From assembly GCA_003220225.1 (NCBI GenBank), contig QHRU01000049.1, positions 21,430 to 85,429 of the forward strand: DNA of 64,000 bases, written 5' to 3'. The notes under the pieces were generated by a model, which ran no database searches, was not told where the DNA came from, and saw only the letters and a list, made by a program, of their open reading frames with translations. The stretch is from Candidatus Rokuibacteriota bacterium (lineage in GTDB: Bacteria > Methylomirabilota > Methylomirabilia > Rokubacteriales > CSP1-6). Both the position numbers and the translations under genes were made by a program. Positions 28,398 through 48,094 of this stretch are shown in pieces (positions within the stretch are counted from its first letter, which is position 1; each line of letters starts with the position of its first letter).

Positions 28398-28892
28398 TTA
28401 GAAATAGGCGATCAGACGCCCGCACGCGATGACGCCCACCCAGAGCCCGATCGAGAGCACGCCGTTGACGCGCGCGGCCATGGGGGCGCGGATCTCGGTG
28501 TCCCAGTCGCCCACGGTGCGGAACGGCCAGCGATGGAAGATGCCCGCGTTCAGGAACGCGGCCACGAGCAGGACGAGCTTGAGGCGCAGGGCGGGGTTCG
28601 TCGCCATCTCGGTCGCGTGGGCGGTGAACATGAGGGCGCCGGTGGGGACGACGAGCAGCAGGCTGAAGCGCGCCCACGGCAGCAGGTGACGCTCGAGCGC
28701 GCTGACGGCGAGCGGCCGCGAGCGGCCCAGCAGGCGCGCGTCGAACATGAGGGCGGCGCCGACGAGCGTCACGAAGCCGACGATGTGGACGATCTCGACG
28801 GCCGGGTAGAGCCACGTCCACTGCCGCATGGCGACCGCCGCCGCGGAAGTCTCCAGCCAGACCAGCCAGGCGGGGCCGCTGGGCGGGTGCAT
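28398..28892 (-). CDS. hypothetical membrane protein (4 TM)
   Basis: Hydrophobic ORF with GC3 bias. Paired with the upstream secreted protein. Confidence 0.5.
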   Translation of the reverse strand: MHPPSGPAWLVWLETSAAAVAMRQWTWLYPAVEIVHIVGFVTLVGAALMFDARLLGRSRPLAVSALERHLLPWARFSLLLVVPTGALMFTAHATEMATNPALRLKLVLLVAAFLNAGIFHRWPFRTVGDWDTEIRAPMAARVNGVLSIGLWVGVIACGRLIAYF

Positions 28893-28914
28893 CAGCCACC
28901 GCTCGGCGGGCGAC

Positions 28915-29268
28915 TCAACGCAGCTCGGTGGTCTTGTCGCCGATGGTGATGCGCTCGGCGCGCATCTCGCCCGGATCCGAGCGGTTGGGATAGCCGACCA
29001 CGCTCGCTTTCGTGCCGGCCTTGAGCATGTCGCGCGGCAGCCCGCGGTTTTCCATCCGGGACGGCGGCGCGAGCACCACGAGCCACGTCTTGTCCGGCGT
29101 CTCGAGCTTCACGTAGCCGTGCGGATGCTCGTAGCCGGCCTCGCGGATGACGCCGCTGAGGCTCAGGACCCGGCTCGCGTCGTAGCCGCTCCAGCCGTGG
29201 TGGGCGAGGGCGGCGGCGGGGGCCAGTACGAGCAACGTCGACACGGCGATTAGCGTGCGCGATCTCAT
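28915..29268 (-). CDS. hypothetical secreted protein (signal peptide, HHGW motif)
   Basis: Signal peptide LVLAPAAALA/HHGWSGYD. About 90 aa mature. Lies upstream of the membrane protein on the same strand. Confidence 0.5.
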   Translation of the reverse strand: MRSRTLIAVSTLLVLAPAAALAHHGWSGYDASRVLSLSGVIREAGYEHPHGYVKLETPDKTWLVVLAPPSRMENRGLPRDMLKAGTKASVVGYPNRSDPGEMRAERITIGDKTTELR

Positions 29269-29304
29269 CGTCGTCCTCCCGGGTGCTCCATTATGGCCGC
29301 GCGC

Positions 29305-29747
29305 TCACGGCGTCGCCAGGTCCGCGGGTACCAGGCGTCCCGCCACCGTGAAGCGGTCGCCCCCGAGCGGCGTGAACACCACCAGGCCGCCCTCCGCGGG
29401 CATGTCCCCGGTGGCGTCGCGGATGTTGAACCCATGGGTGACGAGGACGAGGTTGCCGCCGGCCGGCGGCGTCGCGAGGCGCGCGCGCAGCTCGCGCGCG
29501 CGCGCGGCGACCCGCTCAGCGTCGCGGGGCGCGGCGTTCAGCGGCGGCCACGGCTCGGCGCGTCCGAAGGCGAGCCGCGCGGTCTCCAGGCAGCGGCACC
29601 ACTGGCTGGACAGCACGCGGCCGAGCGGAGAAGGATGACCTGGCCGCCGCTACGCAGGAGCGTCCAGAGGGCGTCGTCGGCGGCGGCGGGCGCGACGCCG
29701 GCCACGAGGGCCAGCGCCGCGCACGCGGAGACCAGCCACCCCCGCAT
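29305..29747 (-). pseudogene. histidine phosphatase (SixA/phosphoglycerate mutase-like) family gene with apparent frameshift
   Basis: N-terminal part (signal peptide ...GGQVILLR) sits in one frame (29538-29747). C-terminal part (NLVLVTHGFNIRD...GGLVVFTPLGG) sits in another (29305-29616). The frame break is around 29620-29640. Confidence 0.3.
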
Positions 29748-29748
29748 G

Positions 29749-31896
29749 CTACGCGCGCTTGAGGAGGTCCCGGTCGATCGGCAGCGTTCGGATCCGCTTG
29801 CCGGTGAGCGCGAAGAGCGCGTTGGTCACGGCCGGCGCCACGGGCGGCACACCGGGCTCACCGAGGCCGCCGGGGGCCTGGCCGGAGTCCACGATGATGG
29901 TCTCGACCTTGGGCGCCTCGGCGATGCGCATCATCGGGTAGTCGTGGAAGTTGGACTGCTGCACGCGCCCCTTGTCGAGCGTGATCTTGCCGTAGAGCGC
30001 GGCCGTGAGCGCGTAGATGGCCCCGCCCTCCATCTGGGAGCGCACCTGGTTCGGGTACACCGCGATGCCGCAGTCGATCGCACACACGATGCGGTGCACC
30101 CGCACGCCGCCGTCGGGCGCCACGGAGACCTCGGCCACGTGCGCCGCGTACGAGCCGTACGAGAACGCCACCGCGATACCGCGCGCGCGGCCGGCGGGGA
30201 GCGGCGTGCCCCAGCCCGCGCCCTTGGCGGCGGCGTCGAGCACGGCGAGGTGACGCGGCGCCTTGCCGAGCAGCGCGCGACGGTACTCGTAGGGGTCCTT
30301 GCCCGCCGCGTGGGCCAGCTCGTCGATGAAGGACTCCGTGATGAACGCGTTCTGCGACGAGCCGACCGAGCGCCAGAAGCCGATCGGCACGCCGAAGTCC
30401 TTCTCCACCCACTCCACCCGGATGTTCGGGATGTCGTAGGGATGGTTGCGCGCGCCCTCGACGGCGGCGGGATCGATGGTGCCCTTGGGCGCGCGCCCCT
30501 TCTGGATCAGGATGCCGGGCCCGACGATGCGGTGCCACCAGGCCACGGGCTGGCCGTTGGCGTCGACCGCGGCCTTGAAGACGTTGTACGTCGCCGGCCG
30601 GTAGAAGCCGTGCTGGATGTCGTCCTCGCGCGTCCAGATGACCTTCACGGGCGCGTTGACGGCCTTCGAGGTCTCGACGGCGTCGGTGACGAAGTCGGGC
30701 TCGCCGCGCCGGCCGAACCCACCGCCCAGCAGTGTCGTCACCACCTCCACCCGCTCCACCGGCACGCCGGCGAGCTTCGCGGCGAGCGCCTGATGGCCGC
30801 CCGGGTTCTGGGTCGGCACCCAGAGGGTGACGCTGTCGGGCATGACGTGCGCGGTGGCGTTCATCGGCTCCATGCACGCGTGCTCGAGAAACGGCACCTG
30901 GTAGACGGCCTCGACGACCTTGCCGCCGGCGCCCAGCGCCTGCTCGGCGTTGCCCTCGTTGCGCGCCACCTGGCCCGCCTGCCTGGACATCGCCTCGTAC
31001 TGCTTGCTGATCGCAGCACTGGTGAGCGGGGCCAGGGCGCCCTCGTCCCACGTGACCTTGAGCGCGCGGCGGCCCTGCAGCGCCGACCAGAAGTTGGTGG
31101 CGACGACGGCGACGCCGTTGCTGACCTGCACGACGTGGCGGACGCCCGCCACGGCCTTGGCGGCCGTGGCGTCGAAGGACTGCACCTTGCCGCCGAATAC
31201 CGGGCAGCGCTCGATCGAGGCGATCAGCATGCCCGGCACCTTCACGTCCATGCCGTAGACCGCCCTGCCGTCGGTCTTGACCGGGATGTCGAGGCGGGCG
31301 ATGCCTTCCTTGCCGATGTAGCGGAACTGGTCCTTCGTCTTCAACACCGGGTTCTGCGGCACCGGCAGCTGCGAGGCTTTGTCCACGAGCTGCCCGTACA
31401 TCAGTCGTCGTCCACTCGGACGATGAATGACGACACCCGGCTCCGTTTCCAGCTCGCTCTCCGGAACGTTCCACTCCTGCGCGGCGGCCTGCTTCAGCAT
31501 CTGGCGGGCGGCGGCGCCGGCCTTGCGCCACATCTCGAGGTGGTCGCGCACGCCGCGGCTGCCGCCGTAGGCCTGGTTGCCGGTGACGGGGTTCGCGTAG
31601 AGCTTGGGGTTGGCCGGCGCCTGCTCGATCCGGATCTTGCCCCAGTCGGCGTCGAGCTCGTCGGCGATGATCATCGGCGTCGCGGTCATGGCGCCCTGGC
31701 CCATCTCGGGCACCGAGTTCGTGATCGTCACGACGCCATCGCGATCGATCTTGAGCCACTGGTTGGGCGCGAAGACGCCGGGCGTCTGCTGCGCGGCGGC
31801 GTCCAGCGGGAGGCGGAAGCCGATGACGAGGCCGGCGCCGAGCGCGGCGCCGCCCTTGAGGAGCGCGCGACGGGTGATCTTCGGGTTGCGGTTCAT
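29749..31896 (-). CDS. xanthine dehydrogenase family molybdopterin-binding subunit, IorB / aldehyde oxidoreductase beta-subunit type, TAT-secreted
   Basis: Start moved to [23 protein letters not shown] (twin-arginine signal). 715 aa. Mo-hydroxylase large-subunit domains. Confidence 0.85.
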
Positions 31897-32363
31897 CGCG
31901 TGCCTGCCTTCTTCATCGCGGCCGCCTTGTGGATCGCGGCGCGGATCCGCTGGTAGGTGCCGCAGCGGCAGATGTTGCCGGCCATGGCGGCGTCGATGTC
32001 GGCGTCGGTCGGGCTCGGCTTGGCCGCGAGCAGCGCGGCCGCCGACATGATCTGGCCCGACTGGCAGTAGCCGCACTGCGGGACCTGCTCCTCGACCCAT
32101 GCCTTTTGCAGCGGGTGCTCGCCCTTCGCATCGAGCCCCTCGATCGTGGTGACGCGCCGGCCGCGCGCGGCCGAGGTGGGCGTCACGCACGCGCGCACGG
32201 GCTGGCCGTCGAGGTGCACGGTGCACGCGCCGCACTGCGCGACGCCGCACGCGTACTTGGTGCCGGTGAGGCCGGCGGCCTCCCGGATCGCCCAGAGCAG
32301 CGGCATCTCGTTCGGGACGTCGAGCTGCTGTTGCCTGCCGTTGATCGTCACCGGAATCGCCAT
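31893..32363 (-). CDS. (2Fe-2S)-binding protein, Mo-hydroxylase small subunit (IorA/CoxS-like)
   Basis: Two [2Fe-2S] cysteine clusters: [11 protein letters not shown] and [10 protein letters not shown]...CRCGTY. ATGA overlap with the IorB start. Confidence 0.85.
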
Positions 32364-32374
32364 GGGCTGCTCCT

Positions 32375-33405
32375 CTACGGGGTGAGCACGATCTTGCCGA
32401 ACTGCTTGCCCTCGGCCAGGCGGGTCTGGGCGGCCGCGCCGTCCTTGAGCGGAACCACCTCGTCGATGATCGCCTTCAGGCGCCCCTGGAAGAAGAGGCG
32501 CATGACGTCGTTGAACTCCTTCCGGTTGGCCATCGTGGAGCCGATGATGTGCACCTGCTTCCAGAACACGAGCGGGATGAGCGTCTCGCCGACCGGCCCC
32601 GAGGTCGAGCCGCACGTCACGAGTCGGCCGCCGCCCTTGAGCGCGCGGATCGAGTCCTTCCACGTGGCCGCGCCGACGTTCTCGATGACGACGTCCACGC
32701 CGCGCTTGTCGGTGGCCTCGAACACCGCCTTCGTCCACTGGGGGTTCGTCTTGTAGTTGATGCCGACGTCAGCGCCGAGCGTCTTGGCGCGCTCGAGCTT
32801 CGCATCGCTGGACGAGGTCACGATCACGCGCGCGCCGCAGAGCCTGGCGATCTGCACGGCGGTGGACGACACGCCGCCCCCGACGCCGATGACGAGCACG
32901 TCCTGGCCCGGGCCGACCTTGCCCTGGGTCACCACCATGCGCCACGCCGTCATGTTGGTGAGGACGAAGGACGCGGCCTCTTCGTCCTTCACGTGGGCCG
33001 GCAGCGGCAGCACGTTGTCGGCGCGCACGGCCACGAGCTCGGCGAGGCCGCCGCGGACGTGCTCGCCGAGGATGCCGTATCTCACGCAGAGGCTGTCCTC
33101 GCCCGCCGCGCAGAACTCGCAGCGGTCGCACGTGAGGTTCGGGTTCACGACCACGCGGTCGCCGACCTTCACGCCCTGCGCCGCCGCGCCGACCTCCACG
33201 ACCTCGCCCGCGATATCGCAGCCGGTCCAGAAGGGCAGCGGCGTCTTCAGCGTGGGAATGCCCTCGCGGACGAACAGGTCGAGGTGGTTCAGCGCGCACG
33301 CCTTCACCCGGACGAGAACCTCGTGCGGCGCGATCGTGGGATCCGGAACGTCCTCGTACCTGAGCTTGTCGGGACCGCCGAACTCGTGGAAGAGGAGCGC
33401 GTTCA
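32375..33405 (-). CDS. zinc-binding alcohol dehydrogenase family protein (MDR superfamily)
   Basis: GxGxxG NAD site [10 protein letters not shown]. Catalytic and structural Zn Cys motifs (CALNHLD, CDRCEFC). Confidence 0.8.
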
Positions 33406-34442
33406 TCGAGAGCCGTTGAACTCCTGAATCACCCGGGGCAACCGGGGATCGTCGAGGGTCGGCTGCTTGTCGGGCTGGTAAAACGCCGTGCGGTCGAGGA
33501 GCCCCGCGTAGCGCTCCTTCAGCCGCGCCGCGATCGTGGCGTAGGAGCCGACGACGGCGTAGGTCTCGAGCATCTCGTCGGTGATCAGATCGGCCATGCC
33601 CTTCCAGTCGCCTTCCACCGACTTGCGGTGCAGGTGGGGCACCAGATCCTGCCAGCCGTGGGCGGCCAGCACGGGCTCGTAGGTGCGCGTGGAGGCGTAG
33701 AAGGCGATCTGCTGCTTCACCGCCTGCTTGTGCCGAGCGATCTCCTGCTCGGTGTCGCCGACGATCACGAAGCTGGAGGTCGCATAGGTGAAATCGGCGC
33801 GCGCGCGCCCCGCCTTCGCCATGCCTTCTTCGACAGCCGGCCGCACGAGCTCGCGCAGGTACTTCGGGCTGTTGAACGGGTGCACGTGCAGGCCGTCGCA
33901 CACCTCGCCCGCCACGCGGCACATGGTCGGGTTCACGCCCGCGATGTAGACGGAGATCCCGGGATGCTCGATGGGCCCCGGGTTGAAGAACGGCGTCATG
34001 AGGTCGAAGCGGAAGAACTGGCCCTTGAAGGCGAGCGTGGTCCCGTTCTGCCAGCAGTCCCAGATCGCGCGCATGGCCAGGACCACCTCGCGCATCTTCG
34101 GCGCCGGCGACTCGAACTTCACCGAGAAGCGGCGCTCGTTGTGGCCCTTCACCTGCGAGCCCAGCCCGAGGATGAAGCGCCCGCCCGAGGCCTTCGCGAG
34201 GTCCCAGGAGATCTGGGCGAGGATCATCGGGCTGCGCGGGAACGCGACGGCGATCGAGGTGCCGAGCTTGATCTTCGACGTCACGGTGGCCGCGACGGCG
34301 AGCGGCAGGAACGGATCGTGCTGGGTCTCCGCCGACCAGAGGCAGTCGTACCCGAGCGCCTCGACCTTGCGCGCGTAGTCGGGGATCGACTCGAGATCGT
34401 GGGTCAGCATGCCGACGTCGAGCTTCAGCGGGGGCCTCCCAT
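33403..34442 (-). CDS. LLM class flavin/F420-dependent oxidoreductase
   Basis: LLM TIM-barrel motifs. The start is ambiguous (ATG at 34442 or 34410) and overlaps the upstream NMO stop. Confidence 0.75.
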
Positions 34443-35537
34443 GGCGCGCAATCTTACCAGCACGGCCTCGGCCTCGCGCGCGATGCGTTCCACGACCTCC
34501 GCCGCGCCGGGCAGGTCGTGGACGAGCCCCGTCGACTGGCCGGCGTAGAGCGCCGTGTACTCGGCGTCGCGCTGCTGCGCGGCGGCCGCGAAGACGTCCA
34601 GCGCGGCGCGCTGCTGCATGAGGGTCGGAAGCACCGGGGCGCCCGACGCGGCATAGTCCTCGGTGAACCGGTTGCGCAGCGAGCGCGCCCACAGGCCGGT
34701 GTACGCCTCCGTCAGCGTCGTCCCCCCGTCGCTCTCGAGCAGGCGCTTCTTCCACACCTCGGAGGCCATCGATTCGCGGGTGGCGACGAAGCGCGTGCCG
34801 AGCAGCGCGCCCACGGCGCCGAGCGCGAGCGCGGCGACGAGCCCGCGGCCATCCGCGATACCGCCGGCGGCGACGACGGGCACACGGACGGCGTCCACCA
34901 CCTGGGGCACGAGCGTGAGCGTGGCGACGCTGGCCTCCTCGCGCGGCTTCTTCACCCACGTCGAGCGGTGCCCGCCCGCCTCGCCGCCCTGGGCCACGAC
35001 GATGTCCACGCCGTTGGCCTCGACGGCGCGCGCGTCCTCGACGGTCGCCACCATGGCCACGACCTTGATCCCGCGCTCGTGGCAGCGCCGGACCATCGCG
35101 GGCTCGGGATTGCCGAGGCCGATCGACCACACGGGCACGCGCTCCTCGAGGATCACCGCGAACTCCTCGTCGATGAGGTCGGGCATCCCGGGGGCGGGCT
35201 GGTCGGTCGTCGGAATCCCCAGTCGCTCGCGGAAGACGTTCAGCTGGGTCTGCACGGCGCGCATCGTCGCCGCCGGCACGCGCGCGGGATCGACGGGCGG
35301 GCGCAGCTCCGTGTGCAGCCACTGGTTGACGCCGAACGGGCGGTCGGTCACCGAGCGCACGTGGCGGATGCGCTTGCGCAGCTCGTCGGCGGTGACGCCG
35401 AGACCGGCCACGATGCCGAGACCGCCGGCCCGCGACACCTCTGCCGCGAGCTCGGGGCCGGCGGCGCTGCCCATGCCGGACTGCACGATGGGGTACTCGA
35501 TGCCGAGCAGGTCGCAGAGGGGAGTGCGCAGGCTCAT
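34425..35537 (-). CDS. nitronate monooxygenase / NAD(P)H-dependent flavin oxidoreductase (NMO, 2-nitropropane dioxygenase family)
   Basis: Start moved to MSLRTPLCDLLGIEYPIVQSGMG (NMO N-terminal motif). FMN-binding GGIADGRG. Confidence 0.8.
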   Translation of the reverse strand: MSLRTPLCDLLGIEYPIVQSGMGSAAGPELAAEVSRAGGLGIVAGLGVTADELRKRIRHVRSVTDRPFGVNQWLHTELRPPVDPARVPAATMRAVQTQLNVFRERLGIPTTDQPAPGMPDLIDEEFAVILEERVPVWSIGLGNPEPAMVRRCHERGIKVVAMVATVEDARAVEANGVDIVVAQGGEAGGHRSTWVKKPREEASVATLTLVPQVVDAVRVPVVAAGGIADGRGLVAALALGAVGALLGTRFVATRESMASEVWKKRLLESDGGTTLTEAYTGLWARSLRNRFTEDYAASGAPVLPTLMQQRAALDVFAAAAQQRDAEYTALYAGQSTGLVHDLPGAAEVVERIAREAEAVLVRLRAMGGPR

Positions 35538-37156
35538 CGGACGAACTCCTTCAGGGCCAGCTCGCGCAGCTTCACGCGCTGGACCTTCTCGCCGTGCGGG
35601 CTCGGGGTCCGCGGCACGTCGTCCACGAAGCGGACGCCGCGCGGGATCTTGAACGAGGCGATCTTGCCGTGACACCACGCGCGCAGCTCCTCCTCGGTGA
35701 CCCGCGCCCCGGCCTTGCGGATCACGTAGGCGACGGGGGCCTCGTTGCTCCCGGGATCCGGGATGCCGACCACGAAAGCCTGCGCGACGTCCGGATGCGC
35801 GAGCAGGAAGTCCTCGATCTCGCCGGGCGCCACCATGTGGTGACTGATCCGCAGCGTCTCCTTGAGGCGGCCGCTGAAGATGACGCGCCCTTTGTGATCC
35901 CGCCGCCCAAGATCGCCGCTCTTGAACCAGCCGTCGGCGGTGAAGGCGGCCTTCGTCTCCGCGGGCATGTCATAGTAGCCGCGCGTCACGAGCGCCCCGC
36001 GGAACTGCAGCTCGCCCTCCTCGTCGACGGCCGCGATCGCGCCGGTCTCCGGGCGCGCCACGCGCGCTTCGAGCCCGGGCGCCGGCCACACGCCGGGCAG
36101 CAGCCGGTCGGCCGCGGGCTCGTCGAGCTCGTGCAGCAGCGACATCGCGTTGACCTCGGTCATGCCGTAGGGCTGGAAGGCGAGCGGCATCAGCCGCTCG
36201 AGCACCTCCTCGAGCAGCCCGTGACGGCCGCCGCCCGTGGCCGCGACGCCGCCCGTGCGCAGCGAGGAGAGATCGCGACGGCCGACGTCGGGGTGGTCGA
36301 GCAGCGGGATCAGCATGCTGTCGACCGCGTTCCACACCGTGCAGCGCTCGCGCTCGATCAGCATGAGCGCGCGCAGCGGATCGAAGACGTCCATCAGCAC
36401 CAGGCACGCGCCGTGGCTCCACGCGGTGAGGGGAATGTTGACGCCACCCCACGTCCCGGCGGCGGGCAGCGCGTGGAGAATGCGATCCGCGGGCGTGAGC
36501 CGCAGCGTCTCGCCGCAGTTCCAGCCATGGGGCACGCAGTTCGCGTGCGTGATCATCGCGCCCTTGGGAAACGACGTCGTCCCCGACGTGTAGAGGATCG
36601 TGAAGGTATCGTCGGGCGCGACGGCCGCGGGCGCGAGCGTGCCGGCGGCCATCAGATCGCTCACGCGATGGCAGCCGGGGTAGACGGCCTCCGAGTCGAC
36701 GATCACGTGGCGCAGTCGCGGGAAGCGCGCGCTCGCGAGCTCGCCGGGCACGGCGTCGGCCAGCTCGGGCAGCAGCGCCTCGAGCGTGTCGAGGTAGTCC
36801 ACCGGGCCGAGCCGGTCGGTGGCCAGCAGCGCGACGGCGTGCGACTGGCCGAGGATGTAGGCCAGCTCGTGGGCGCGGTAGCGCGGGTTCAGGGCCACCA
36901 CGACCACGCCGAGGCTCGCCGCCGCGTACTGCGCGACGAACCACAGCGGGCGGTTCGGCAGCCAGATCGCCAGCGCGTCGCCCCGGCCCAGGCCGAGGGC
37001 GGCGAGGCCGGCCGCGAAGACGCGCGCGCGGTCGCGGACGGCGGCGAAGGTGAGCCGCGCGTCGTCGAACACGATGGCCTCGCGCGGGCCGTGGCGCGCG
37101 GCGATCGTCTCCAGCAGCGACCACGCCGTCGCCCGCGCGAAGGGGTTGGCCGCCAC
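35534..37156 (-). CDS. AMP-dependent synthetase/ligase (acyl-CoA synthetase family)
   Basis: AMP-binding motif YTSGTTSFPKGAM. GTG start chosen at VAANPFARATAW. Stop abuts the NMO start. Confidence 0.8.
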   Translation of the reverse strand: MAANPFARATAWSLLETIAARHGPREAIVFDDARLTFAAVRDRARVFAAGLAALGLGRGDALAIWLPNRPLWFVAQYAAASLGVVVVALNPRYRAHELAYILGQSHAVALLATDRLGPVDYLDTLEALLPELADAVPGELASARFPRLRHVIVDSEAVYPGCHRVSDLMAAGTLAPAAVAPDDTFTILYTSGTTSFPKGAMITHANCVPHGWNCGETLRLTPADRILHALPAAGTWGGVNIPLTAWSHGACLVLMDVFDPLRALMLIERERCTVWNAVDSMLIPLLDHPDVGRRDLSSLRTGGVAATGGGRHGLLEEVLERLMPLAFQPYGMTEVNAMSLLHELDEPAADRLLPGVWPAPGLEARVARPETGAIAAVDEEGELQFRGALVTRGYYDMPAETKAAFTADGWFKSGDLGRRDHKGRVIFSGRLKETLRISHHMVAPGEIEDFLLAHPDVAQAFVVGIPDPGSNEAPVAYVIRKAGARVTEEELRAWCHGKIASFKIPRGVRFVDDVPRTPSPHGEKVQRVKLRELALKEFVR

Positions 37157-37157
37157 G

Positions 37158-38020
37158 TCAGTCGAGGTGGTAGAGGACCGACGCGTTCTTCCACGCCACC
37201 CGCTCGGCGACGTCGGGGGGCAGCTCACCGAGCACGCGGCGCGTCCACGTCATGAGGCGGTCGAGCATGGCCGGCTCGAACAGCCGCGCCGCCAACGCGT
37301 CGACGCCCATGAGGAAGCGGTCGGGCATCTTCGCGATCAACGCCTTCCACGCCGGATGCAGCGGACCCTTCTCCTTGGCGAGCGACGGCGTGCGCTGAAA
37401 GTGCATGCCCGAGAGGTCGACCCTGAGGTTGGCGTTGCGCCCGAGCAGGCGCTCGAGATCGCGGGGCTTCGCCTCGCCGGCGTGAGCGAGGACGATGACC
37501 GCCTCGCGGTGGGCGGCCAGCGCCGCCTCGAGCGAGGCCGCGGCGGCGGGCGTCAGCTCGTCGTGGATCACGATCGGCACGCCGCGCTGCGCGGACAGCT
37601 CGAGGATCTTCATGAACGCCGGCGCGGAGGGATCGCGCTCGATCTTGCGGCTCGCCTGGCGGATGTGAACCTCGCCCATCACGCGGGCCTTGGTGCGCGC
37701 CAGCTCCACGTCCAGCTGGCCCGCCGCGGCCATGTTGGTCGGATCGGGCACGCGCACGCCGGCCGACACGAGGTCCGGATACTTCTTGACGGCGGCCTCG
37801 ATCCACTCCACCTCGTCCGGCTGCACGCCGCCCACACCGAGGAGCACGACCTTGCGGACGTTGTGGCGCTTCATGGCCGCGACGTAGGCATCGATGGCCG
37901 TGGCGTTCGGCAGATGGGAATGCGCGTCGATGAGCGGACCCGTGTAGTCCGCGGCGGCGGCCGGTCCGACGACGGCGAGCGCGGCGAGCAGCGTCAGCGC
38001 GAGAGCGCCCGCGCCTCTCA
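37158..38020 (-). CDS. amidohydrolase family (TIM-barrel metal-dependent hydrolase), secreted
   Basis: Start moved to MRGAGALALTLLAALAVVGPAAAA (signal peptide). Metal-binding DAHSHLP motif. ATGA overlap with the upstream CoA-transferase stop. Confidence 0.65.
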
Positions 38021-39202
38021 TACGATCCCGTCGCGCTTCAAGCTCTCCAGCTCGGCCTCGCTCACGCCGAGCGCGCCGTAGACCTCGCGGTTGTGGGCGC
38101 CCAGCTCGGGCCCCGCCCAGCGCACGGTCGCCGGGGTGGCGTCGAGCCGCGGCGTCGGCGCCGTCATCCGCACGGCGCCGAGGGCGGGATCGGGCACGTC
38201 GATCAGGATCCCGCGCGCGACGACGTGCGGGTCCTTGGTGATGTCGGCGATGTCGTAGACGGGGCACGCGGTGAGGTCGCTCGACTCGAAGAGCCCGCGC
38301 ATCTCGTCGAGCGTGCGCTGGCCGATGGCGCGGGCGATCGTGGCGTCCACCAGCTCGTTGAACTCGACGCGCGCGTCGTTGGTGGCGAAGCGCGGGTCTC
38401 TCAGGAGGTCGGCGAGGCCGAGCGCGCCGAACACCGCGGTCGCCGAGGCCGGCGTGGACGCCGAGAGCGCGATCCACTTGTCGTCCAGGGTGCGATAGGT
38501 GCCGCGCGGGCTCGCGTTGTCGGAGGTGTTCCCGTGACGCTGGCGCACGACGCCCCCCAGCGCGTAGCCGGCGGCGTCGGGGCCGAGGACGGAGAGCAGC
38601 GGCTCGTAGAGCGAGATGTCGACGACCTGGCCGCGTCCCGAGACCTGGTCACGATACCGGAGGGCGGCCAGCACGGCGCTCGCCCCGGCGAGCGCCGCGA
38701 CCATGTCGGCCATCGGGAAGGACGGCAGCGTCGGCGGCCCTTCGGCCTCGCCCGTCGTGTGGGCGAAGCCGCTCATCGCCTCGACCATCGTGCCGAAGCC
38801 GGGGCGGTCGCGGTACGGGCCATCCTGCCCCCAGCCCGACACGCGCGCGAACACGAGCTTCGGGTTCGCCGCGGAGAGCGCATCCCAGCCGAGCCCCCAG
38901 CGCTCGAAGGTGCCGGGCACGAAGTTCTCGAGGAGGACGTCGGCGTCGCTCACGAGCCGCTTGAGCAGCGCCTGGCCGCGCGGCTGGGTGAGGTTGAGCG
39001 TGATCGAGCGCTTGCCGCGCGCGTACACCTTCCACCACAGCTCGCCGCGATCGCGCAGCCACGTGCGCAGCGGATCGCCGCCGCGCGGGTTCTCGACCTT
39101 GATGACGTCGGCGCCGTGATCGGCCAGCACGGTGGCGAGCACGCCGCCGGCGATCAGCCGGGAGCAATCGATCACGCGGAGTCCCGCCAGCGCGCCGCTC
39201 AT
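38018..39202 (-). CDS. CoA transferase, family III (CaiB/BaiF)
   Basis: N-terminal GLRVIDCSRLIAGG motif and catalytic Asp region. 394 aa. Confidence 0.85.
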   Translation of the reverse strand: MSGALAGLRVIDCSRLIAGGVLATVLADHGADVIKVENPRGGDPLRTWLRDRGELWWKVYARGKRSITLNLTQPRGQALLKRLVSDADVLLENFVPGTFERWGLGWDALSAANPKLVFARVSGWGQDGPYRDRPGFGTMVEAMSGFAHTTGEAEGPPTLPSFPMADMVAALAGASAVLAALRYRDQVSGRGQVVDISLYEPLLSVLGPDAAGYALGGVVRQRHGNTSDNASPRGTYRTLDDKWIALSASTPASATAVFGALGLADLLRDPRFATNDARVEFNELVDATIARAIGQRTLDEMRGLFESSDLTACPVYDIADITKDPHVVARGILIDVPDPALGAVRMTAPTPRLDATPATVRWAGPELGAHNREVYGALGVSEAELESLKRDGIV

Positions 39203-39236
39203 GGTCGATCGTTATGATACTCCCGCGCGCGAGGGA

Positions 39237-39923
39237 TCAGACGCCGCCGACGCGTGCCGCGAGGTCGAGCACCTCGCGCGGGTCGACGTCCGACACGAGC
39301 GCGTAGCCGAGGCCGTGGGCGCGCCACATCACGACGGTGAAGCCGCGCGCGCTGTCACGGTAGACGTCGTGGGCGCCCGCGCGCTGCCAGCCCGTGCTGG
39401 GCCACGGCAGGCCGTCGGGACGGAAGACGAAGAGCGTGACGGTGTGCAGGCGCAGGCCGTAGACGAAGGCCGCCGCCCTGCGGTCGAGGAACCACGCGAG
39501 CGCGCCGCCGCGCAGCGGCACCTCGCGGTCGCCGACGAACGGCAGCACGGGGGAGAAATCGAGGCGTCCCTCGAACCACGGCCGCACGCGATGGCCGTCG
39601 CCGCTCTCGATCTCCAGCGGGCGCTGCGCCTGCGCGATGCGCAGGTGATCGGCGATCGCCTCGTTGACCATGGTGGCCGTGGCCACGCGCGTGGCGGCCG
39701 TGCGCTGGTAGAAGACGACCGGGGCGGTCACGAGCAGCACGAGCGCGGCGGCGAGCGCGGGAGCCCAGGCGCGCCGCCAGAGCAGCCGGCGCGGTGCGGG
39801 CGCCATGGCCAGCACGCGCTCGACGCGTCCGACCAGGCGCGCCGGCGCCGGGCGGTGGGGCAAGCGATGGAGCGCTTCGGTCAGCTCGGCGTCGACCGCG
39901 TGGTCATGGTCCATGGGGTTCAT
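39237..39923 (-). CDS. anti-sigma factor (membrane-spanning, RskA/ChrR-like)
   Basis: Start moved to MNPMDHDH. Single TM. Stop/start overlap with the upstream ECF sigma gene. Confidence 0.6.
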
Positions 39924-40429
39924 CGCGCGTAGTCCCGCAGCCGGCGCCGCAGCGCCGCGCGCGCCCGGGCGAGCCGCGACTTCACCGTCCCGACGGGACA
40001 CTCGAGCACCGCCGCCATCTCCACCTCGCTCAAGTCTTCCAGATCGAGCAGCACCACCGTGCGCGCCTCCTCCGAGAGGCTCATCAGCGCGGCCTCGATC
40101 TCCTCGGCCACGACCTTGCGCAGCCGGTCCAGCTCGAGGTCGTCGCGCAGCCACTCCTCGCTCGCCGCCGCGTCCGCGACGTCGACTCCGCTCACCTCGG
40201 GGCTGGCGCGCCGCCGGCGGTAGAGGCTGATGAAGGTGTTCCGGAGGATACGGAACAGCCACGCCTTGAGGTTGGTCCCGGGCGTGAAGCCCGCGGCGCC
40301 GGCCACGGCGCGGGCGTAGGTCTCCTGCACGAGATCCTCGGCGTCCGTCTCGCGGCCCGTGAGGTAACGCGCCAGCTTGTAGAGCGCGTCCACGTGGCCG
40401 AGCGCCTCGCGCGCCAGCGCCTCATGCAT
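39920..40429 (-). CDS. ECF subfamily RNA polymerase sigma-70 factor
   Basis: Sigma-70 region 2 (YKLARYLTG...DLVQETY) and region 4 ([20 protein letters not shown]). Confidence 0.85.
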
Positions 40430-40557
40430 GCCGAAACCATAGCACCGTTGACACCTTCGTCACCCTCCGCAACGCGCGAGCGCCCGAATCGTTCCCATCG
40501 CGCCATCTGGGAACGACGCGTGTATCGGCGCGTTGGCGCATGTGAAGGAGGCTGACG

Positions 40558-40875
40558 ATGACCCGCGGATTCCTGACCATGACCCTTGTGGCGGCGGTTG
40601 CGCTCGCCGCCGTCGCCGATGCGGCGACACCACCGAGCGTGCAGATCAAGGAGTTCAAGTTCGTGCCGGCGCTGCTGACCGTGCCCGTGGGCGCCACCGT
40701 GACGTGGATCAACGGCGACGAGGAGCCGCACACGGTGACGGCGACCGATCGCGCGTACACGTCCAGCGGGCTGGACCGCAAGGAAACGTACGCGCATCGC
40801 TTCACCACGCCCGGGACGTACACGTACTTCTGCGCCCTGCATCCACACATGACCGCAACCGTCGTCGTGAAGTGA
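40558..40875 (+). CDS. cupredoxin-domain copper-binding protein (plastocyanin/amicyanin-like)
   Basis: Signal peptide. Type-1 Cu ligands H...C.LH.HM (YFCALHPHM). Confidence 0.75.
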   Translation: MTRGFLTMTLVAAVALAAVADAATPPSVQIKEFKFVPALLTVPVGATVTWINGDEEPHTVTATDRAYTSSGLDRKETYAHRFTTPGTYTYFCALHPHMTATVVVK

Positions 40876-40895
40876 CGACGTCGCAGGAGGATTCC

Positions 40896-41801
40896 ATGGA
40901 ACGGCGACACTTCATGCAGTGCCTGGCCTGGGCCGGGACCGGACTGGTGTGGGCCGCGCGCGGCGGCGTGCTGTCCGCGACGGTGCTCGGCGAGGCGTCG
41001 GCCGCCGGCGCCGACTTCACGTTCGGACAGATCAGCGACACGCACGTCGGCTTCGGCGGCGAGGCCAACAAGGACGCGATGGGCACGCTGCGCGACTCCA
41101 TCGCGGGCCTCAACGCGCTCGAGCCGCGTCCGGCGTTCGTGCTGCACACGGGCGACCTGTCCCACGGACAGAAGCCCGGCGCCTTCGACACGCTCGCGGA
41201 GTCGCTGAAGGCCGTGAGGACGGAGAAGATCGTCTACATCCCCGGCGAGCACGACGTGGCCATCGATGGCGGCAAGGAATTCCTGAGCCGCTACGGCGCC
41301 GGCACCTACGAGAACCGCGGCTACCGATCGTTCGACTACCGCGGCGTCCACTTCGTCGGTCTCGTGAACGTGCTGGCGTACAAGCCGGGTGTGGGCGGCG
41401 CCCTCGGTGACGAGCAGCTCGACTGGCTGCGGAAGGATCTCGAGCCGCTCACGGCGAGCACCCCCCTCGTCGTCTTCTCCCACGTGCCGCTCTGGGCCGT
41501 GTATCCGGCATGGGGCTGGACCACGGCCGACGGCGAGCAGGTGATCGGCATGCTGCGCCGCTTCGGCTCGGTCACGGCTCTCAACGGTCACATCCACCAG
41601 GTGCTCCAGAAGGTCGAGGGGAACATCACCTTCCACTCGGCGCGGTCGACGGCCTTCCCGCAGCCCGCGCCCGGTGCGGCGCCGACGCCGGGGCCGATGA
41701 AGGTGGAGGCCGGACAGCTGCGCCGCCTGCTCGGCGTGCGCGAGGTCCATTACGTGGAGGGCACGGCGCCGCTGGCCGTCGTCGAGCGCCCGCTCGCGTA
41801 G
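40896..41801 (+). CDS. metallophosphoesterase (calcineurin-like phosphatase), TAT-secreted
   Basis: AGGAGG RBS. Twin-arginine motif MERRHFMQCLAWAG. Motifs GDxHVG, GDLSHG and GEHD. Confidence 0.75.
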   Translation: MERRHFMQCLAWAGTGLVWAARGGVLSATVLGEASAAGADFTFGQISDTHVGFGGEANKDAMGTLRDSIAGLNALEPRPAFVLHTGDLSHGQKPGAFDTLAESLKAVRTEKIVYIPGEHDVAIDGGKEFLSRYGAGTYENRGYRSFDYRGVHFVGLVNVLAYKPGVGGALGDEQLDWLRKDLEPLTASTPLVVFSHVPLWAVYPAWGWTTADGEQVIGMLRRFGSVTALNGHIHQVLQKVEGNITFHSARSTAFPQPAPGAAPTPGPMKVEAGQLRRLLGVREVHYVEGTAPLAVVERPLA

Positions 41802-43012: not shown

Positions 43013-43171
43013 CTAGCGCTTGGACGTCTGCTTGAAGTGCGCGGCGAGCGCGTCCATCACGCGGGCCAGCGCTTCGCTCTCGGTGCGGCCGGTCGCGGTG
43101 ACCTTGTACTCGATGGCCTCGGCCACCCACTCGCCGCCGTCGTTCTTGTAGACCTCCACCTCGAACTGCAT
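43013..43171 (-). CDS. HicB-like (UPF0150) antitoxin-fold small protein, orphan
   Basis: Start moved to MQFEVEVYKNDGGEWVAEAIEY... (HicB_lk_antitox-type). No HicA partner adjacent. Confidence 0.45.
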   Translation of the reverse strand: MQFEVEVYKNDGGEWVAEAIEYKVTATGRTESEALARVMDALAAHFKQTSKR

Positions 43172-43226
43172 CGGCGGCAGTCTATAGCACGGTGTATCAT
43201 CGGGCAACTTTCGACGGGAGGATGCC

Positions 43227-44596: not shown

Positions 44597-45040
44597 CTAG
44601 GCGGGTGGGCCGGCCGCGCGCCAGGCGAGCACCCGGTCGGCGTACAGCCGCAGCACGACGCCCTCGCGCTCCAGGGCCATCGTGCGGTACTGCGCGTACT
44701 TCGCGCGCAGCAGCTCGAGCGCGCGCGTGAAGTCGGCGCCCGCGTTCAGCACGTCGGCGTGGCCCTCGACGCTCACCCACGCCAGGCGCGTCCAGTCCTC
44801 GTCCCACACGTCGACGAGGAGCGAGGCGTGGGGGTTCTCGCGCACGTTGCGCAGCCGGCGCAGGTCGCGCGTGCGCTTGGGCTTGTCGTCCACGGCGGAG
44901 TAGAGCGCGGCGCCGTCGAAGGCGAAGCACACGGGGACGAGCAGAGGACGGCCGGCGGCGTCGGCGGTCGCCAGCCGGCCGACGCGGGCCTCGCGGAGCA
45001 TCGCGAGGGCCCACGCCGGCGCGGAGGCGGGCGGGCTCAC
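44597..45040 (-). CDS. PPOX class (pyridoxamine 5'-phosphate oxidase-like) F420-dependent enzyme family protein
   Basis: Split-barrel motif AMLREARVGRLATADAAGRPLLVPVCF. GTG start overlaps the upstream LLM stop. Confidence 0.65.
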   Translation of the reverse strand: MSPPASAPAWALAMLREARVGRLATADAAGRPLLVPVCFAFDGAALYSAVDDKPKRTRDLRRLRNVRENPHASLLVDVWDEDWTRLAWVSVEGHADVLNAGADFTRALELLRAKYAQYRTMALEREGVVLRLYADRVLAWRAAGPPA

Positions 45041-45876
45041 TACCTGATCAGCTTCGCGTACTGATCGAGCAGCGGCAGGACCTTGTCGCGCGGCTCGGGG
45101 GGCAACAGCAAGATCGATCGCGTGACGCCGGCGGAGGCGAACTGGTCGAGCACGGCCTTGTCCGGCGGGGTGGCGAAGGCGGAGACCGAGATCGTCTTCA
45201 TGTCGCGCCCGGCCTTGGCCGCGCGCGCCTTGAGGTCCTTCAACCCCTCCAGCACCTTCTCGGGAGCGCGGCCGCGCGGGTACCAGCCGTCGCAGAAGTC
45301 CACCACGCGCTGCAGCGTGTAGCCGCTCTCGCCGCCGAGCAGGATCGGCGGGTACGGCTTCTGCGCGGGCTTGGGCCAGGCCCAGATCGGGTCGAAGTTC
45401 ACGAACTGGCCGTGGAACTCGGCGACGTCCCTCGTCCAGATCTCCTTCAGCGCGCGCACCTGCTCCTCGAGCCGCTTGAAGCGGGACTTGAACTCGGTGC
45501 CGTGATGCTCCATCTCCTCGGCGTTCCAGCCGCCGCCCAGCCCGAACTCGAAGCGCCCGTGCGAGAGCAGGTCGAGGCTCGCGACGGACTTGGCCGTCGT
45601 GATCGTGTCGCGCTCGATGATCAAGCAGATCCCCGTGCCGACGCGCAGCGTCTTCGTCGCCGCCGCGGCCGCCGTCAGCGCGACGAAGGGATCGAGGGTG
45701 TGCTTGTACTGCTCCGGCAGCTGCTGGCCGCCCGCGAACGGGCTGCGCCGGCTGGTCGGGATGTGCGTGTGCTCGGGCACCCACAGCGACTCGAAGTTGC
45801 GCGCCTCGGTCTCGCGCGCCAGCTCGTCGATGCGGATCGCGTACTCGGTGGCGAAGATGCAGACGCCGATGTGCAT
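45040..45876 (-). CDS. LLM class F420-dependent oxidoreductase
   Basis: LLM TIM-barrel motifs. 278 aa. Confidence 0.8.
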   Translation of the reverse strand: MHIGVCIFATEYAIRIDELARETEARNFESLWVPEHTHIPTSRRSPFAGGQQLPEQYKHTLDPFVALTAAAAATKTLRVGTGICLIIERDTITTAKSVASLDLLSHGRFEFGLGGGWNAEEMEHHGTEFKSRFKRLEEQVRALKEIWTRDVAEFHGQFVNFDPIWAWPKPAQKPYPPILLGGESGYTLQRVVDFCDGWYPRGRAPEKVLEGLKDLKARAAKAGRDMKTISVSAFATPPDKAVLDQFASAGVTRSILLLPPEPRDKVLPLLDQYAKLIR

Positions 45877-45892
45877 GCGGGATCCTCCTGGT

Positions 45893-46312
45893 TCAGCGGG
45901 TCGGGGTGGCGCCCGGCGCGGGTGGGCTGGGCACGAGGGAAAAGTGCGTGTGCGTGGCGAGCCAGCGGCCGCCGCGGCGCTCGAAGGCGAGGGTGCACCG
46001 CCCGGGGCGCGGGAACGTGCCGCCGTCGGCGAGGGTGCCGCGCGAGTCCCAGGTGGCGGCGATCCAGCCGCGATCGCCCGCGATCGCGCCGCGCGCGTTG
46101 TCGACGTCGATCGTGAAGTCGCGGATGACCGGCCACACGCGGTGCCACTGCTCCTTCTCGATCACGTCGAGGCCCTGGACGAAGGGCACGACGGTGCCGA
46201 AGGCGACGATGTCTGGCGCGCACAGCCGGCGTCCGGCTGCGAAATCGACGGCGCGCACGCAGGTCTGCCAGGCGCGCAGCCAGTCGCGGAGGGGCGCGAG
46301 GTCGTCGGCCAT
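45893..46312 (-). CDS. SnoaL-like / NTF2-like domain protein
   Basis: 139 aa with NTF2-like cone fold signature. Confidence 0.55.
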   Translation of the reverse strand: MADDLAPLRDWLRAWQTCVRAVDFAAGRRLCAPDIVAFGTVVPFVQGLDVIEKEQWHRVWPVIRDFTIDVDNARGAIAGDRGWIAATWDSRGTLADGGTFPRPGRCTLAFERRGGRWLATHTHFSLVPSPPAPGATPTR

Positions 46313-47250
46313 CAGGACGGGAAGATCGCGTCGGGCATGAAGGCGGAGACGATCCAGTTCGGCGCGTCCACGATCTCGCTGATCTTGAGGTCGGCCGCCA
46401 CCGAGCAGATGACGTAGGCCTCCTCACGCGAGAAGCCGCGCGTCTCCACCAGGTGGTCGATCATGTAGCGCACCGCCTGCTGCGCGGCCGCGAAGAGATC
46501 GGGCCCGTGCGCGGTCGTCGCGTAGTGCGGGCCGTGGTTGGTCGCGTGCGATGGCGGCGCCGGCGTGACGAGCTGCGGCTCGGGCAACCGCCGGCCGCGG
46601 CGCAGGCCGAACCTCAGCGTCACGCGCCCCATCATCTCGACGGCGGTGACACACACCTCGCCGTCGCCCTGCGCGGCGTGGGCGTCGCCGACGCTGAACA
46701 GCGCGCCCTCGACGAGCACGGGCAGGAAGAGCGTCGCGCCGGCGACGAGCTGCTTGATGTCCATGTTGCCGCCCGCGCGCCGCGGCGGCATCGTGCTGTG
46801 GCCGCCCGGCTCGTCGAGCGCCACGCCCATGACGCCGGGGAACGGCGCCAGCGGCACCGCCACGCGGTGGTCCATGCGCGCGTGCCGTCCATCGGAGATG
46901 TCCCAGATCTGGAGGAACGGCTTGGCGAAGTCGGTCTCGGGCAGCAGCCCTCGCCCGGGGCGGATGGCTGTCCAGCCGAAGTCCGCGCCCGGCTGCACAT
47001 CGAGGATCTCGATCACGAGCGTGTCGCCCGGCCGCGCGCCGCGGATCTTCACGGGGCCGGTGAGCGGGTGACCACGGAACGGGCCGCGGCGCAGGACGTC
47101 GTCGTGCGTCGAGCCCTTCGAGTAGAAACGGTTGGCGGCGTCCCGCGTCTCGAAGACCACGGTGTCGCCGGGATCGACCTCGAGCCGTGGCGGCAGCGCG
47201 TTGTTCCACTCCTGGTGGATCTCCTCGTGGCCGAGCTGGTGGGTCTTCAC
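46312..47250 (-). CDS. acetamidase/formamidase (FmdA_AmdA family)
   Basis: Start set to a GTG (VKTHQLGHEE...). FmdA/AmdA core motifs. Confidence 0.78.
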   Translation of the reverse strand: MKTHQLGHEEIHQEWNNALPPRLEVDPGDTVVFETRDAANRFYSKGSTHDDVLRRGPFRGHPLTGPVKIRGARPGDTLVIEILDVQPGADFGWTAIRPGRGLLPETDFAKPFLQIWDISDGRHARMDHRVAVPLAPFPGVMGVALDEPGGHSTMPPRRAGGNMDIKQLVAGATLFLPVLVEGALFSVGDAHAAQGDGEVCVTAVEMMGRVTLRFGLRRGRRLPEPQLVTPAPPSHATNHGPHYATTAHGPDLFAAAQQAVRYMIDHLVETRGFSREEAYVICSVAADLKISEIVDAPNWIVSAFMPDAIFPS

Positions 47251-48092: not shown

Positions 48093-48094
48093 CG

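Follow-up and report, generated by a model that had tools for sequence, protein, structure and literature searches.

In the cai operon (CaiB, CaiC, CaiA, and CaiD) and the bai operon (BaiF, BaiB, and BaiCD), family-III CoA-transferases work in cycles that are primed by a ligase. The IorAB-like enzymes that have been characterized are periplasmic deoxyribose and vanillin dehydrogenases exported through the twin-arginine translocation (TAT) pathway (PMC6365646). Genes that recall both systems lie end to end on the minus strand of contig QHRU01000049.1, within a 64-kb stretch of DNA (called the window here) from a soil Candidatus Rokubacteria (Methylomirabilota) metagenome-assembled genome (MAG) whose genes carry DMD80_133xx locus tags and generic product names. 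The run starts with an extracytoplasmic-function (ECF) sigma factor and an anti-sigma-like membrane protein. It continues with a CoA-transferase (CoAT), an exported amidohydrolase-fold protein (Amido), an acyl-CoA ligase (ACS), and a protein of the nitronate monooxygenase (NMO) family, together called module A; an LLM oxidoreductase and an MDR-superfamily oxidoreductase (gene ADH), module B; and an iron-sulfur subunit (FeS) and an IorB-like molybdopterin subunit, module C. With moderate confidence, we read this run as a lineage-specific concatenation of four separable modules and not as one dedicated pathway, although it is probably co-transcribed.

Ten minus-strand genes were modeled between 29749 and 40429 by third-position GC (GC3) frame analysis and start-codon mapping, in a window that is 70 to 74% GC throughout (Table 1). 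Their lengths match independent public gene calls on six soil-metagenome contigs. An earlier note, made from this DNA alone, had listed the same ten genes, and its order, strand, and family labels were confirmed by the gene models together with Pfam and NCBIfam. The nearest homologs of the proteins all come from soil Rokubacteria or Methylomirabilota. Among the catabolic proteins, the LLM alone passes a curated NCBIfam cutoff (the sigma factor also passes TIGR02937). Equivalog matches of the transferase, ligase, NMO, MDR, FeS, and IorB proteins all fall far below cutoff, and specific enzyme names therefore cannot be assigned to them. A tRNA scan found none.

The evidence for separable modules comes from the order of these genes in related genomes. 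About 160 loci were compared: 80 species-level loci anchored on LLM, searched by tblastn with 20 window proteins, and 80 further loci from a metagenome scan anchored on IorB. Rokubacteria share a backbone whose 5′ part reads cupin ... CoAT-Amido-(ACS)-(NMO)-variable genes-LLM and whose 3′ part reads LLM-variable genes-ADH-(histidine phosphatase)-DUF6152-DUF6644-...-PFK. Outside Rokubacteria (Terriglobia and Anaerolineae), LLM is found without any gene of the cluster. Within the backbone, modules A and B usually lie apart. Over 500 nt separate NMO from LLM in 17 of 27 species, over 800 nt separate LLM from ADH in 17 of 37, and LLM and the MDR gene usually lie 0.5 to 3.3 kb from module A. Genes on the opposite strand separate NMO and LLM in L009, L017, and L030; an opposite-strand HxlR-type regulator sits between the modules in L017 and L030, and L009 has an opposite-strand DsbA-like gene. 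Other variable genes are a MatE transporter gene inside the cluster (L008, L010, L013, L017, and L030), a PaaI-like thioesterase gene (L017), a gene for a 413-aa crotonyl-CoA carboxylase/reductase-like (Ccr-like) protein after LLM (L008, L017, L030, and L054), and an enoyl-CoA hydratase gene found only in the distant relative L054. Because of these distances and intervening genes, modules A and B are separate units in the sister species, and the arrangement in the window is best described, from this comparison, as a compacted derivative.

Module C is even more loosely attached. FeS and IorB follow ADH in 1 of the 80 LLM-anchored loci (L012) and likewise in L008, which came from the IorB look-up, and no remnants of the two genes were found in L009 (∼90% identical), L010, L011, L013, L014, and others. 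Where IorB homologs are 80% and 75% identical to that of the window, the FeS and IorB pair alone is kept and the neighborhoods are unrelated. L008, with an IorB of 77% identity, has the cluster context without the sigma pair and without the amidohydrolase-fold gene. In 58 of 63 loci, IorB is immediately preceded by FeS. The ADH/LLM cluster lies upstream of IorB in both loci at 90% identity or more, in 3 of 24 loci at 68 to 90%, and in 0 of 25 at 45 to 68%. The earlier note had proposed a single coherent eight-gene pathway. This proposal fails both on the spacing of NMO and LLM and on the linkage of FeS and IorB to the cluster at these lower identities, and in the sister species the opposite-strand genes between NMO and LLM divide the set into several independent units.

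FeS has Fer2 and Fer2_2 domains, and IorB has MoCoBD_1 and MoCoBD_2 without the a/b-hammerhead (Ald_Xan_dh_C) that the other two Mo large subunits of the window do carry. A TAT motif, ITRRALLK, was read from the N terminus of IorB and predicts export; the NCBI name of a 79%-identical homolog is twin-arginine translocation pathway signal protein, and some databases label IorB homologs isoquinoline 1-oxidoreductase. The closest solved relative is a membrane-bound aldehyde dehydrogenase (8GY3_C; E 1.2e-77 over residues 7 to 708), compared to 4e-17 for quinoline 2-oxidoreductase and 2e-13 for nicotinate dehydrogenase. An N-heterocyclic substrate, as suggested in the earlier note, is not favored by this ranking, nor by the sugar and aldehyde substrates, deoxyribose and vanillin, of the characterized IorAB-like enzymes. 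No open reading frame (ORF) with a cytochrome c CxxCH motif was present among the candidate ORFs of the window, and none of 50 related loci has one in the 2.5 kb that follow IorB; genuine iorAB likewise has no adjacent cytochrome c gene (PMC6365646). Taken together with the synteny, FeS and IorB are predicted to form a periplasmic Mo dehydrogenase of two subunits that is autonomous and moves from one gene context to another.

Two candidate partners of module C were rejected. The cupredoxin encoded next to the sigma factor does not co-occur with IorAB and so is not a convincing electron acceptor: L009 has the cupredoxin without IorAB, and L008 and L012 show the reverse. A 103-aa ORF after IorB, considered as a third subunit, proved to be what is left of the 3′ part of a decayed gene that encoded a secreted histidine phosphatase. 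An ATG located 2 nt past the end of IorB begins the signal peptide and the first ∼20 mature residues of that protein; ∼55 codons are then deleted, the catalytic RHA motif is gone, and the frame is shifted. Intact orthologs of ∼185 aa are found in L017, L019, L020, and L032, and the lesion is shared by all six public contigs of the window lineage.

Module A is the part of the run that is held together best. The CoAT/Amido junction is tight in 23 of 23 species (−17 to +11), the Amido/ACS junction is tight in 18 of 18, and ACS and NMO share an ATGA overlap in 12 of 14. Order and coupling are kept in 14 to 23 species across 52 to 91% identity, and by this pattern module A appears to be a conserved, translationally coupled unit. 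The CoA-transferase matches PF02515 (CoA_transf_3) with E 1.7e-118. NCBIfam and PDB comparisons place it nearest to family-III enzymes of the dicarboxylate type (succinate-glutarate, SUGCT, YfdE, and Frc), below the equivalog cutoffs, and it scores 147.5 bits against the CaiB equivalog (cutoff, 413). Its product name at JGI is CaiB-like. The ligase has AMP-binding and AMP-binding_C domains, with no PDB match at E ≤ 1e-60 and no equivalog cutoff reached. The NMO-family protein matches PF03060 (E 7e-79), and its PDB scores are tied between FabK enoyl reductases and nitronate monooxygenases (∼1e-50).

The Amido protein matches Amidohydro_2 weakly (E 9.5e-11), and no NCBIfam match and no PDB sequence match at E ≤ 0.01 was obtained. 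Its Sec signal, with the cleavage context AxA|ADYxGPLIDAHSH, is kept in about 30 species. About 1,100 homologs were detected; among the 120 matches listed, identity is at least 71%, and those that carry an organism name are all from Rokubacteria or Methylomirabilota. An AlphaFold (AF2) model had a mean pLDDT of 89.2 and a pTM of 0.86, and Foldseek placed it near Amidohydro_2 decarboxylases, LigI-type lactonases, LigJ hydratase, and TatD (12 to 18% identity; TM, 0.55 to 0.66). The amide substrate suggested by the earlier note thus gains no support from the family name, since the fold resembles decarboxylases, lactonases, hydratases, and TatD and not amidases. A cluster look-up that placed the protein among CoA-transferases was set aside as an artifact of a fused gene call (P0449). 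Tentatively, module A, whose exported enzyme is without characterized relatives, might represent an uncharacterized, Rokubacteria-restricted route in which a periplasmic hydrolytic or decarboxylating step is obligatorily paired with cytoplasmic, CoA-dependent reduction of a soil organic acid. If this is true, the conserved coupling between the exported protein and the CoA enzymes of the cytoplasm would be functional and not incidental. On L003, a public contig of the same lineage (JGI 3300026306), the amidohydrolase-fold gene is split into two calls (6409 to 7253; 221 and 56 aa), and so is the metallophosphoesterase gene (2633 to 3534; 145 and 155 aa); these are either assembly errors or population variants with frameshifts.

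In module B, the LLM matches Bac_luciferase and scores 450.9 bits against TIGR03617 (cutoff, 278.15), a family model by which it is predicted to be F420 dependent. Rokubacteria encode F420 biosynthesis genes (PMC8498797). The LLM is 70 to 91% identical across Rokubacteria, Terriglobia, and Verrucomicrobia MAGs. The MDR protein has ADH_N and ADH_zinc_N domains. Its best PDB match is 2EIH, an uncharacterized Thermus ADH (1.5e-91), and its matches to crotonyl-CoA and acryloyl-CoA reductase models are below cutoff. In L008, the MDR ortholog (9217 to 9543) is cut to a 108-aa remnant in which the first ∼10 residues are joined to the C-terminal ∼95, a sign of ongoing gene decay in this neighborhood.

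Spacing within the window was then considered junction by junction (negative values are overlaps). Five of the nine junctions are 4-nt ATGA overlaps: sigma/anti-sigma, CoAT/Amido, ACS/NMO, LLM/ADH, and FeS/IorB. The remaining four are gaps, namely, anti-sigma to CoAT (+34), Amido to ACS (+1, TGAC GTG), NMO to LLM (+14), and ADH to FeS (+11, with a GAGGAG Shine-Dalgarno sequence). None of the nine is a GTGA overlap or an overlap longer than 4 nt. The earlier statement that nearly every junction is a 1- to 18-nt overlap of the ATGA or GTGA type is therefore correct for four of the seven junctions inside the eight-gene set and does not hold for the other three. Overlaps of 1 to 4 nt and gaps of <40 nt are also the rule for same-strand neighbors elsewhere in the genome, which means that the tight spacing of the cluster is not special. 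A scan of positions 28800 to 41000 found no terminator-like site inside the cluster (a single match was on the wrong strand, below the shuffled expectation). The same region gave no sigma-70 promoter-like site, in a scan that is uninformative at 72% GC. Since the genes are co-directional, the gaps short (all ≤34 nt), and no internal terminator-like site is apparent, co-expression of CoAT through IorB in the source strain, as the earlier note supposed, is plausible, and the run is probably co-transcribed there.

The start of LLM differs between the window lineage and its relatives. The start codon in relatives is a GTG overlapping the stop codon of NMO (VKLDVGM..., GTGA), and a GGGAGG Shine-Dalgarno sequence precedes it. 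In the window lineage this GTG is replaced by CTG (34426 to 34428, minus strand), so that LLM must start either at the rare CTG or at an ATG 18 nt downstream (34410). This ATG has no obvious Shine-Dalgarno sequence.

The sigma factor gene heads a block of its own. The protein consists of regions 2 and 4 only (Sigma70_r2 and Sigma70_r4_2), and outside the window lineage the sigma/anti-sigma pair was seen only in L009 and L093, with L009 the sole carrier among the 80 LLM-anchored loci. A good example of its independence is L074, whose CoA-transferase is 91% identical: sigma, anti-sigma, cupredoxin, and metallophosphoesterase are missing there as one block, and DAGK is directly divergent from the CoA-transferase gene. 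Cupredoxin and metallophosphoesterase are gained or lost together with the sigma pair. In the 128-nt region between the sigma and cupredoxin genes (40430 to 40557), two GGAAC-N16-CGT motifs sit back to back. The first, GGAACGATTCGGGCGCTCGCGCGT, is a candidate autoregulatory promoter of the sigma gene, and the second, GGAACGACGCGTGTATCGGCGCGT, faces the cupredoxin gene. Both are kept in L009, where they are the sole two matches in 21 kb. Their position, divergent pairing, and conservation suggest a compact bidirectional ECF-controlled region, with cupredoxin and metallophosphoesterase as the likely targets. As exported proteins (by a Sec signal and a TAT-like motif, respectively), these two would be sensible targets for an extracytoplasmic-function sigma factor.

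The eight catabolic genes, in turn, show signs of separate control. Within 500 nt upstream of the CoA-transferase gene (39202), no ECF motif was found, whether as GGAAC-N15-18-CGT or in the loose form AAC-N15-19-CGT. A TATCAT box has its 5′ end at −17 from the CoA-transferase ATG, and TATCAT, TATAGT, or TATAAT occurs at the equivalent position in L074, L009, L010, L012, L013, and L008, whatever gene lies upstream. Among the ten gene starts, only those of sigma and CoAT have a TAnnnT box within 45 nt. From this we infer that the catabolic run has its own promoter, separate from the ECF sigma factor. The earlier suggestion that the ECF pair controls the operon does not agree with these observations: the pair is missing in most relatives, the ECF motifs are found only in the sigma/cupredoxin region, and CoAT keeps a −10-like box of its own.

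The second protein of the pair has a hydrophobic segment at residues ∼50 to 72 (by inspection), and its gene overlaps the sigma stop by ATGA. No Pfam match at E ≤ 1 and no PDB match at E ≤ 5 was found. An exhaustive search returned 3,277 homologs, which are typically ∼265 aa with an N-terminal zf-HC2 domain at residues 3 to 41; one homolog, P0538, has a sigma domain fused to it. The alignment of the window protein begins at about residue 41 of these homologs, and the protein lacks the HxxxCxxC zinc motif and has zero cysteines. P0496, P0501, and P0507 are short-form relatives. Given the zf-HC2 domain of its homologs and the sigma fusion of one of them, the 228-aa membrane protein is assigned, by homology, to the anti-sigma family as a member without the zinc motif. 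In distant relatives, a DUF7387 gene (∼53 to 61 aa) directly precedes the CoA-transferase gene, often with a GTGA overlap (L008, 1283 to 1444). In the window it is located at 43013 to 43198 on the minus strand, ∼3.8 kb from the CoA-transferase gene, and DAGK, metallophosphoesterase, cupredoxin, sigma, and anti-sigma are inserted between the two.

The modular reading can be spelled out as follows. The ECF sigma factor would most likely drive its own promoter and that of cupredoxin through the two divergent sites, and module A would be served by the housekeeping-type −10 box just upstream of CoAT. Module B would be a separate unit in most relatives, where it is also accompanied by the Ccr-like enoyl-CoA carboxylase/reductase. 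In the source strain, deletions would have joined modules A, B, and C at gaps of ≤14 nt, so that they are probably expressed together. As to the chemistry, the ligase could thioesterify a carboxylic acid, possibly a dicarboxylate, as a priming step, after which the family-III transferase could recycle the CoA, as its counterparts do in the Cai and Bai systems. Reduction of the enoyl-thioester could fall to the NMO/FabK-like and MDR enzymes, and the LLM may add a redox step linked to F420H2. A diderm cell envelope is predicted for Rokubacteria (PMC5712423). Two reactions may take place in the periplasm: oxidation of an aldehyde, hemiacetal, or similar C-H center by the IorAB-like enzyme, and hydrolysis or decarboxylation of a compound by the amidohydrolase-fold enzyme. 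Acyl-CoA or enoyl-CoA chemistry would be the theme shared with the Ccr-like, thioesterase, and hydratase genes of the relatives.

Several points weigh against this reading. FeS and IorB occupy an equivalent site in the window, L008, L012, L093, L106, L109, and L129; an old arrangement with repeated loss would fit this shared site, and a functional link to module B is possible. Much of the synteny does not extend beyond a single phylum and may be due to common descent and not to selection, and unrelated flanking genes (cupin, PFK, and the DUF6152/DUF6644 pair) are co-conserved. Over the whole window, the strict ECF motif (GGAAC-N15-18-CGT) occurs 8 times compared to 9.3 expected; this count is at chance level and was rejected as evidence, which leaves only the position, pairing, and conservation of the two sites to carry weight. 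ECF-driven read-through into CoAT is possible across a 34-nt gap with no terminator. Finally, the proposed chemistry is generic, and among the enzymes the LLM family model is the only one that reaches its cutoff.

Three other explanations were weighed against the modular one. In the earlier note's own model, the ECF pair switches on eight genes that are co-expressed in stoichiometric amounts and serve a single pathway, with an aromatic acid that is N-heterocyclic or contains an amide as the substrate. This model draws on the tight co-directional genes with their four ATGA overlaps, on the sigma pair 34 nt upstream with no terminator between, and on the database naming of IorB homologs as isoquinoline 1-oxidoreductase. 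The comparative sequence data largely refute it, and we regard it as very improbable. The sigma pair belongs with cupredoxin and metallophosphoesterase to an indel block missing from most relatives, the ECF motifs are confined to the sigma/cupredoxin region while the CoA-transferase gene has its own conserved −10 box, and opposite-strand genes split modules A and B in sister species. FeS and IorB are missing in a ∼90%-identical sister species and are unlinked to the cluster in 21 of 24 loci (68 to 90% identity) and 25 of 25 (45 to 68%). The naming of IorB is countered by its nearest match, an aldehyde dehydrogenase, and by the deoxyribose and vanillin activities of characterized relatives (PMC6365646), and Amidohydro_2 folds are mostly decarboxylases, lactonases, and hydratases. 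The note's observation that the gene set matches no known pathway still stands: literature searches found no characterized pathway with this set.

The gene order could also reflect packing alone, deletions in a compact, paralog-rich genome having abutted unrelated catabolic genes that share no pathway, so that their co-transcription is meaningless. The neighborhood does look like a hotspot of gene flux, with MatE, Ccr-like, HxlR, DsbA-like, and thioesterase genes varying between species, a decayed histidine-phosphatase gene, and an ADH ortholog cut to 108 aa in L008. The co-conservation of unrelated PFK and cupin genes at the flanks, the three Mo subunits and four LLMs within 64 kb, and the genome-wide tight spacing point the same way. 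Yet module A has kept its order and coupling in 14 to 23 species, which argues for function at least there, and the recurring neighbors all handle acyl-CoA (ligase, transferase, thioesterase, Ccr-like reductase, and enoyl-CoA hydratase); pure packing is rated unlikely. Another alternative is that, in lineages with all the modules, the join is adaptive and links periplasm to cytoplasm: the IorAB-like enzyme and the hydrolase would convert an external aldehyde, lactone, or ester to a free acid, which would be imported, CoA activated, and reduced. Two exported proteins do lie in one run with cytoplasmic CoA enzymes, and periplasmic deoxyribose oxidation by an IorAB-like enzyme followed by cytoplasmic processing of the product is a precedent (PMC6365646). 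FeS and IorB recur after the MDR gene in at least seven lineages, and a MatE transporter lies inside the clusters of relatives. However, the window's cluster encodes no importer, no electron acceptor gene is nearby, close relatives with modules A and B do without FeS and IorB, and most orthologs of this IorB clade are located elsewhere. We regard such a route as distinctly improbable. The concatenation of separable modules remains the reading we prefer.

Table 1. Positions of the genes and sites discussed, numbered from the first nucleotide of the window
Feature	Position	Strand	Details
ECF sigma factor	39920..40429	−	169 aa; Sigma70_r2 + Sigma70_r4_2
Anti-sigma-like membrane protein	39237..39923	−	228 aa
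Spacer with −10-like box TATCAT	39203..39236	−	34 nt; anti-sigma/CoA-transferase junction
Family-III (CaiB/BaiF) CoA-transferase (CoAT)	38018..39202	−	394 aa; first gene of module A
Sec-exported amidohydrolase-superfamily TIM-barrel protein (Amido)	37158..38021	−	287 aa; module A
AMP-forming acyl-CoA ligase (ACS)	35534..37156	−	540 aa; GTG start; module A
NMO/FabK-family FMN protein	34425..35537	−	370 aa; module A
LLM oxidoreductase, F420 dependent by family model (TIGR03617)	33403..34410	−	335 aa; module B
MDR-superfamily oxidoreductase ("Zn-ADH")	32375..33406	−	343 aa; module B
IorA-like subunit, two [2Fe-2S] domains (FeS)	31893..32363	−	156 aa; module C
IorB-like molybdopterin subunit, predicted TAT export	29749..31896	−	715 aa; module C
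Decayed secreted histidine-phosphatase gene	29305..29746	−	Internal deletion + frameshift (frame analysis)
DUF6152 + DUF6644 pair	28398-29268	−	Secreted, 117 aa; membrane, 164 aa
ECF-type promoter-like motif GGAACGATTCGGGCGCTCGCGCGT	40472..40495	−	Ends 42 nt upstream of sigma ATG
Divergent ECF-type motif GGAACGACGCGTGTATCGGCGCGT	40510..40533	+	Ends 24 nt upstream of cupredoxin ATG (40558)
Cupredoxin	40558-40875	+	Sec signal; Pfam from public gene calls
Metallophosphoesterase	40896-41801	+	TAT-like RRHF motif; Pfam from public gene calls
PNPOx-like, LLM, SnoaL-like, FmdA/AmdA-type amidase, LigB, LigA, cupin (gene run)	44597-48874	−	
Further Mo large subunits with hammerhead	12450-14816; 60903-63140	−; +	
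Further LLM oxidoreductases	18482-19516; 45040-45876; 59842-60834	+; −; +	
DUF222/HNH endonuclease gene	About 16327-17709	−	460 aa (public call); GC 0.699; missed by GC3 filter

The window as a whole is rich in paralogs of the enzymes in the run. It holds three Mo large subunits of the xanthine oxidase family and four LLMs, and because of this a chance juxtaposition of Mo and LLM families comes easily. The gene run that ends with LigA and cupin looks like an aromatic ring-cleavage cluster (LigA, extradiol ring-cleavage dioxygenase). Next to it come a divergent GntR regulator gene and the genes of a branched-chain-type ABC transporter (50993 to 56203). Its membership in a pathway with CoAT through IorB was judged unlikely, as five genes that vary between relatives intervene. 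Beyond its cupin gene, L008 has a DctP gene. Of 27 Rokubacteria species loci, 14 have the DUF6152/DUF6644 pair downstream of the cluster. The DUF222/HNH gene may be mobile or foreign.

Rokubacteria abound in soil, have large genomes, and are uncultured, and their carbon metabolism is known from annotation alone. The main value of this locus is cautionary: an apparently neat eight-gene operon of a single strain breaks up into modules when sister genomes are compared, and this makes pathway inference from a single locus unreliable in such paralog-rich genomes. Two small leads are left. One is module A, which is conserved and includes an exported amidohydrolase-fold enzyme; the other is the ECF block, which is compact and combines two divergent promoter-like sites with an anti-sigma-like protein that has no zinc motif. 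Neither alters current understanding unless a substrate or a signal is identified.

Compared with described systems, module C is closest in architecture to the IorAB type (isoquinoline 1-oxidoreductase of Brevundimonas diminuta and the Pseudomonas deoxyribose and vanillin enzymes). The two share a small subunit with two [2Fe-2S] domains encoded directly upstream of a TAT-exported large subunit, MoCoBD_1 and MoCoBD_2 without a hammerhead, and the lack of an FAD subunit and of an adjacent cytochrome c gene. In the window, however, the pair is appended to CoA-dependent genes, an association that is not conserved. The three-subunit membrane-bound aldehyde dehydrogenase (8GY3) is likewise a periplasmic, TAT-dependent Mo enzyme with a 2Fe-2S small subunit, but the window pair has no gene for its cytochrome c subunit. 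The sigma pair shares with ECF/ZAS-type (zf-HC2) pairs the sigma2 and sigma4 architecture, the downstream membrane protein with an ATGA overlap, and the upstream GGAAC-N16-CGT. It differs in that the anti-sigma-like protein lacks the first ∼35 residues, including HxxxCxxC, and in that its inferred targets are the divergent genes and not the catabolic cluster. In the SAR202 Chloroflexi, LLM/F420 oxidoreductase and CaiB/BaiF transferase paralogs are expanded in oligotrophic degraders (PMC5395668); the window similarly holds multiple copies alongside generic acyl-CoA enzymes, in a different phylum and habitat (soil Rokubacteria). By analogy with the Cai and Bai systems, the window appears to join an AMP-forming CoA ligase and a CaiB/BaiF-family transferase beside flavin or NAD(P)H reductases, of which the NMO/FabK-like and MDR proteins are the candidates that could act on an enoyl-thioester. 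The window cluster has no acyl-CoA dehydrogenase, old-yellow-enzyme (OYE) reductase, or dehydratase/crotonase family gene. What it has instead, between the transferase and the ligase, is the gene for a secreted amidohydrolase-fold protein.

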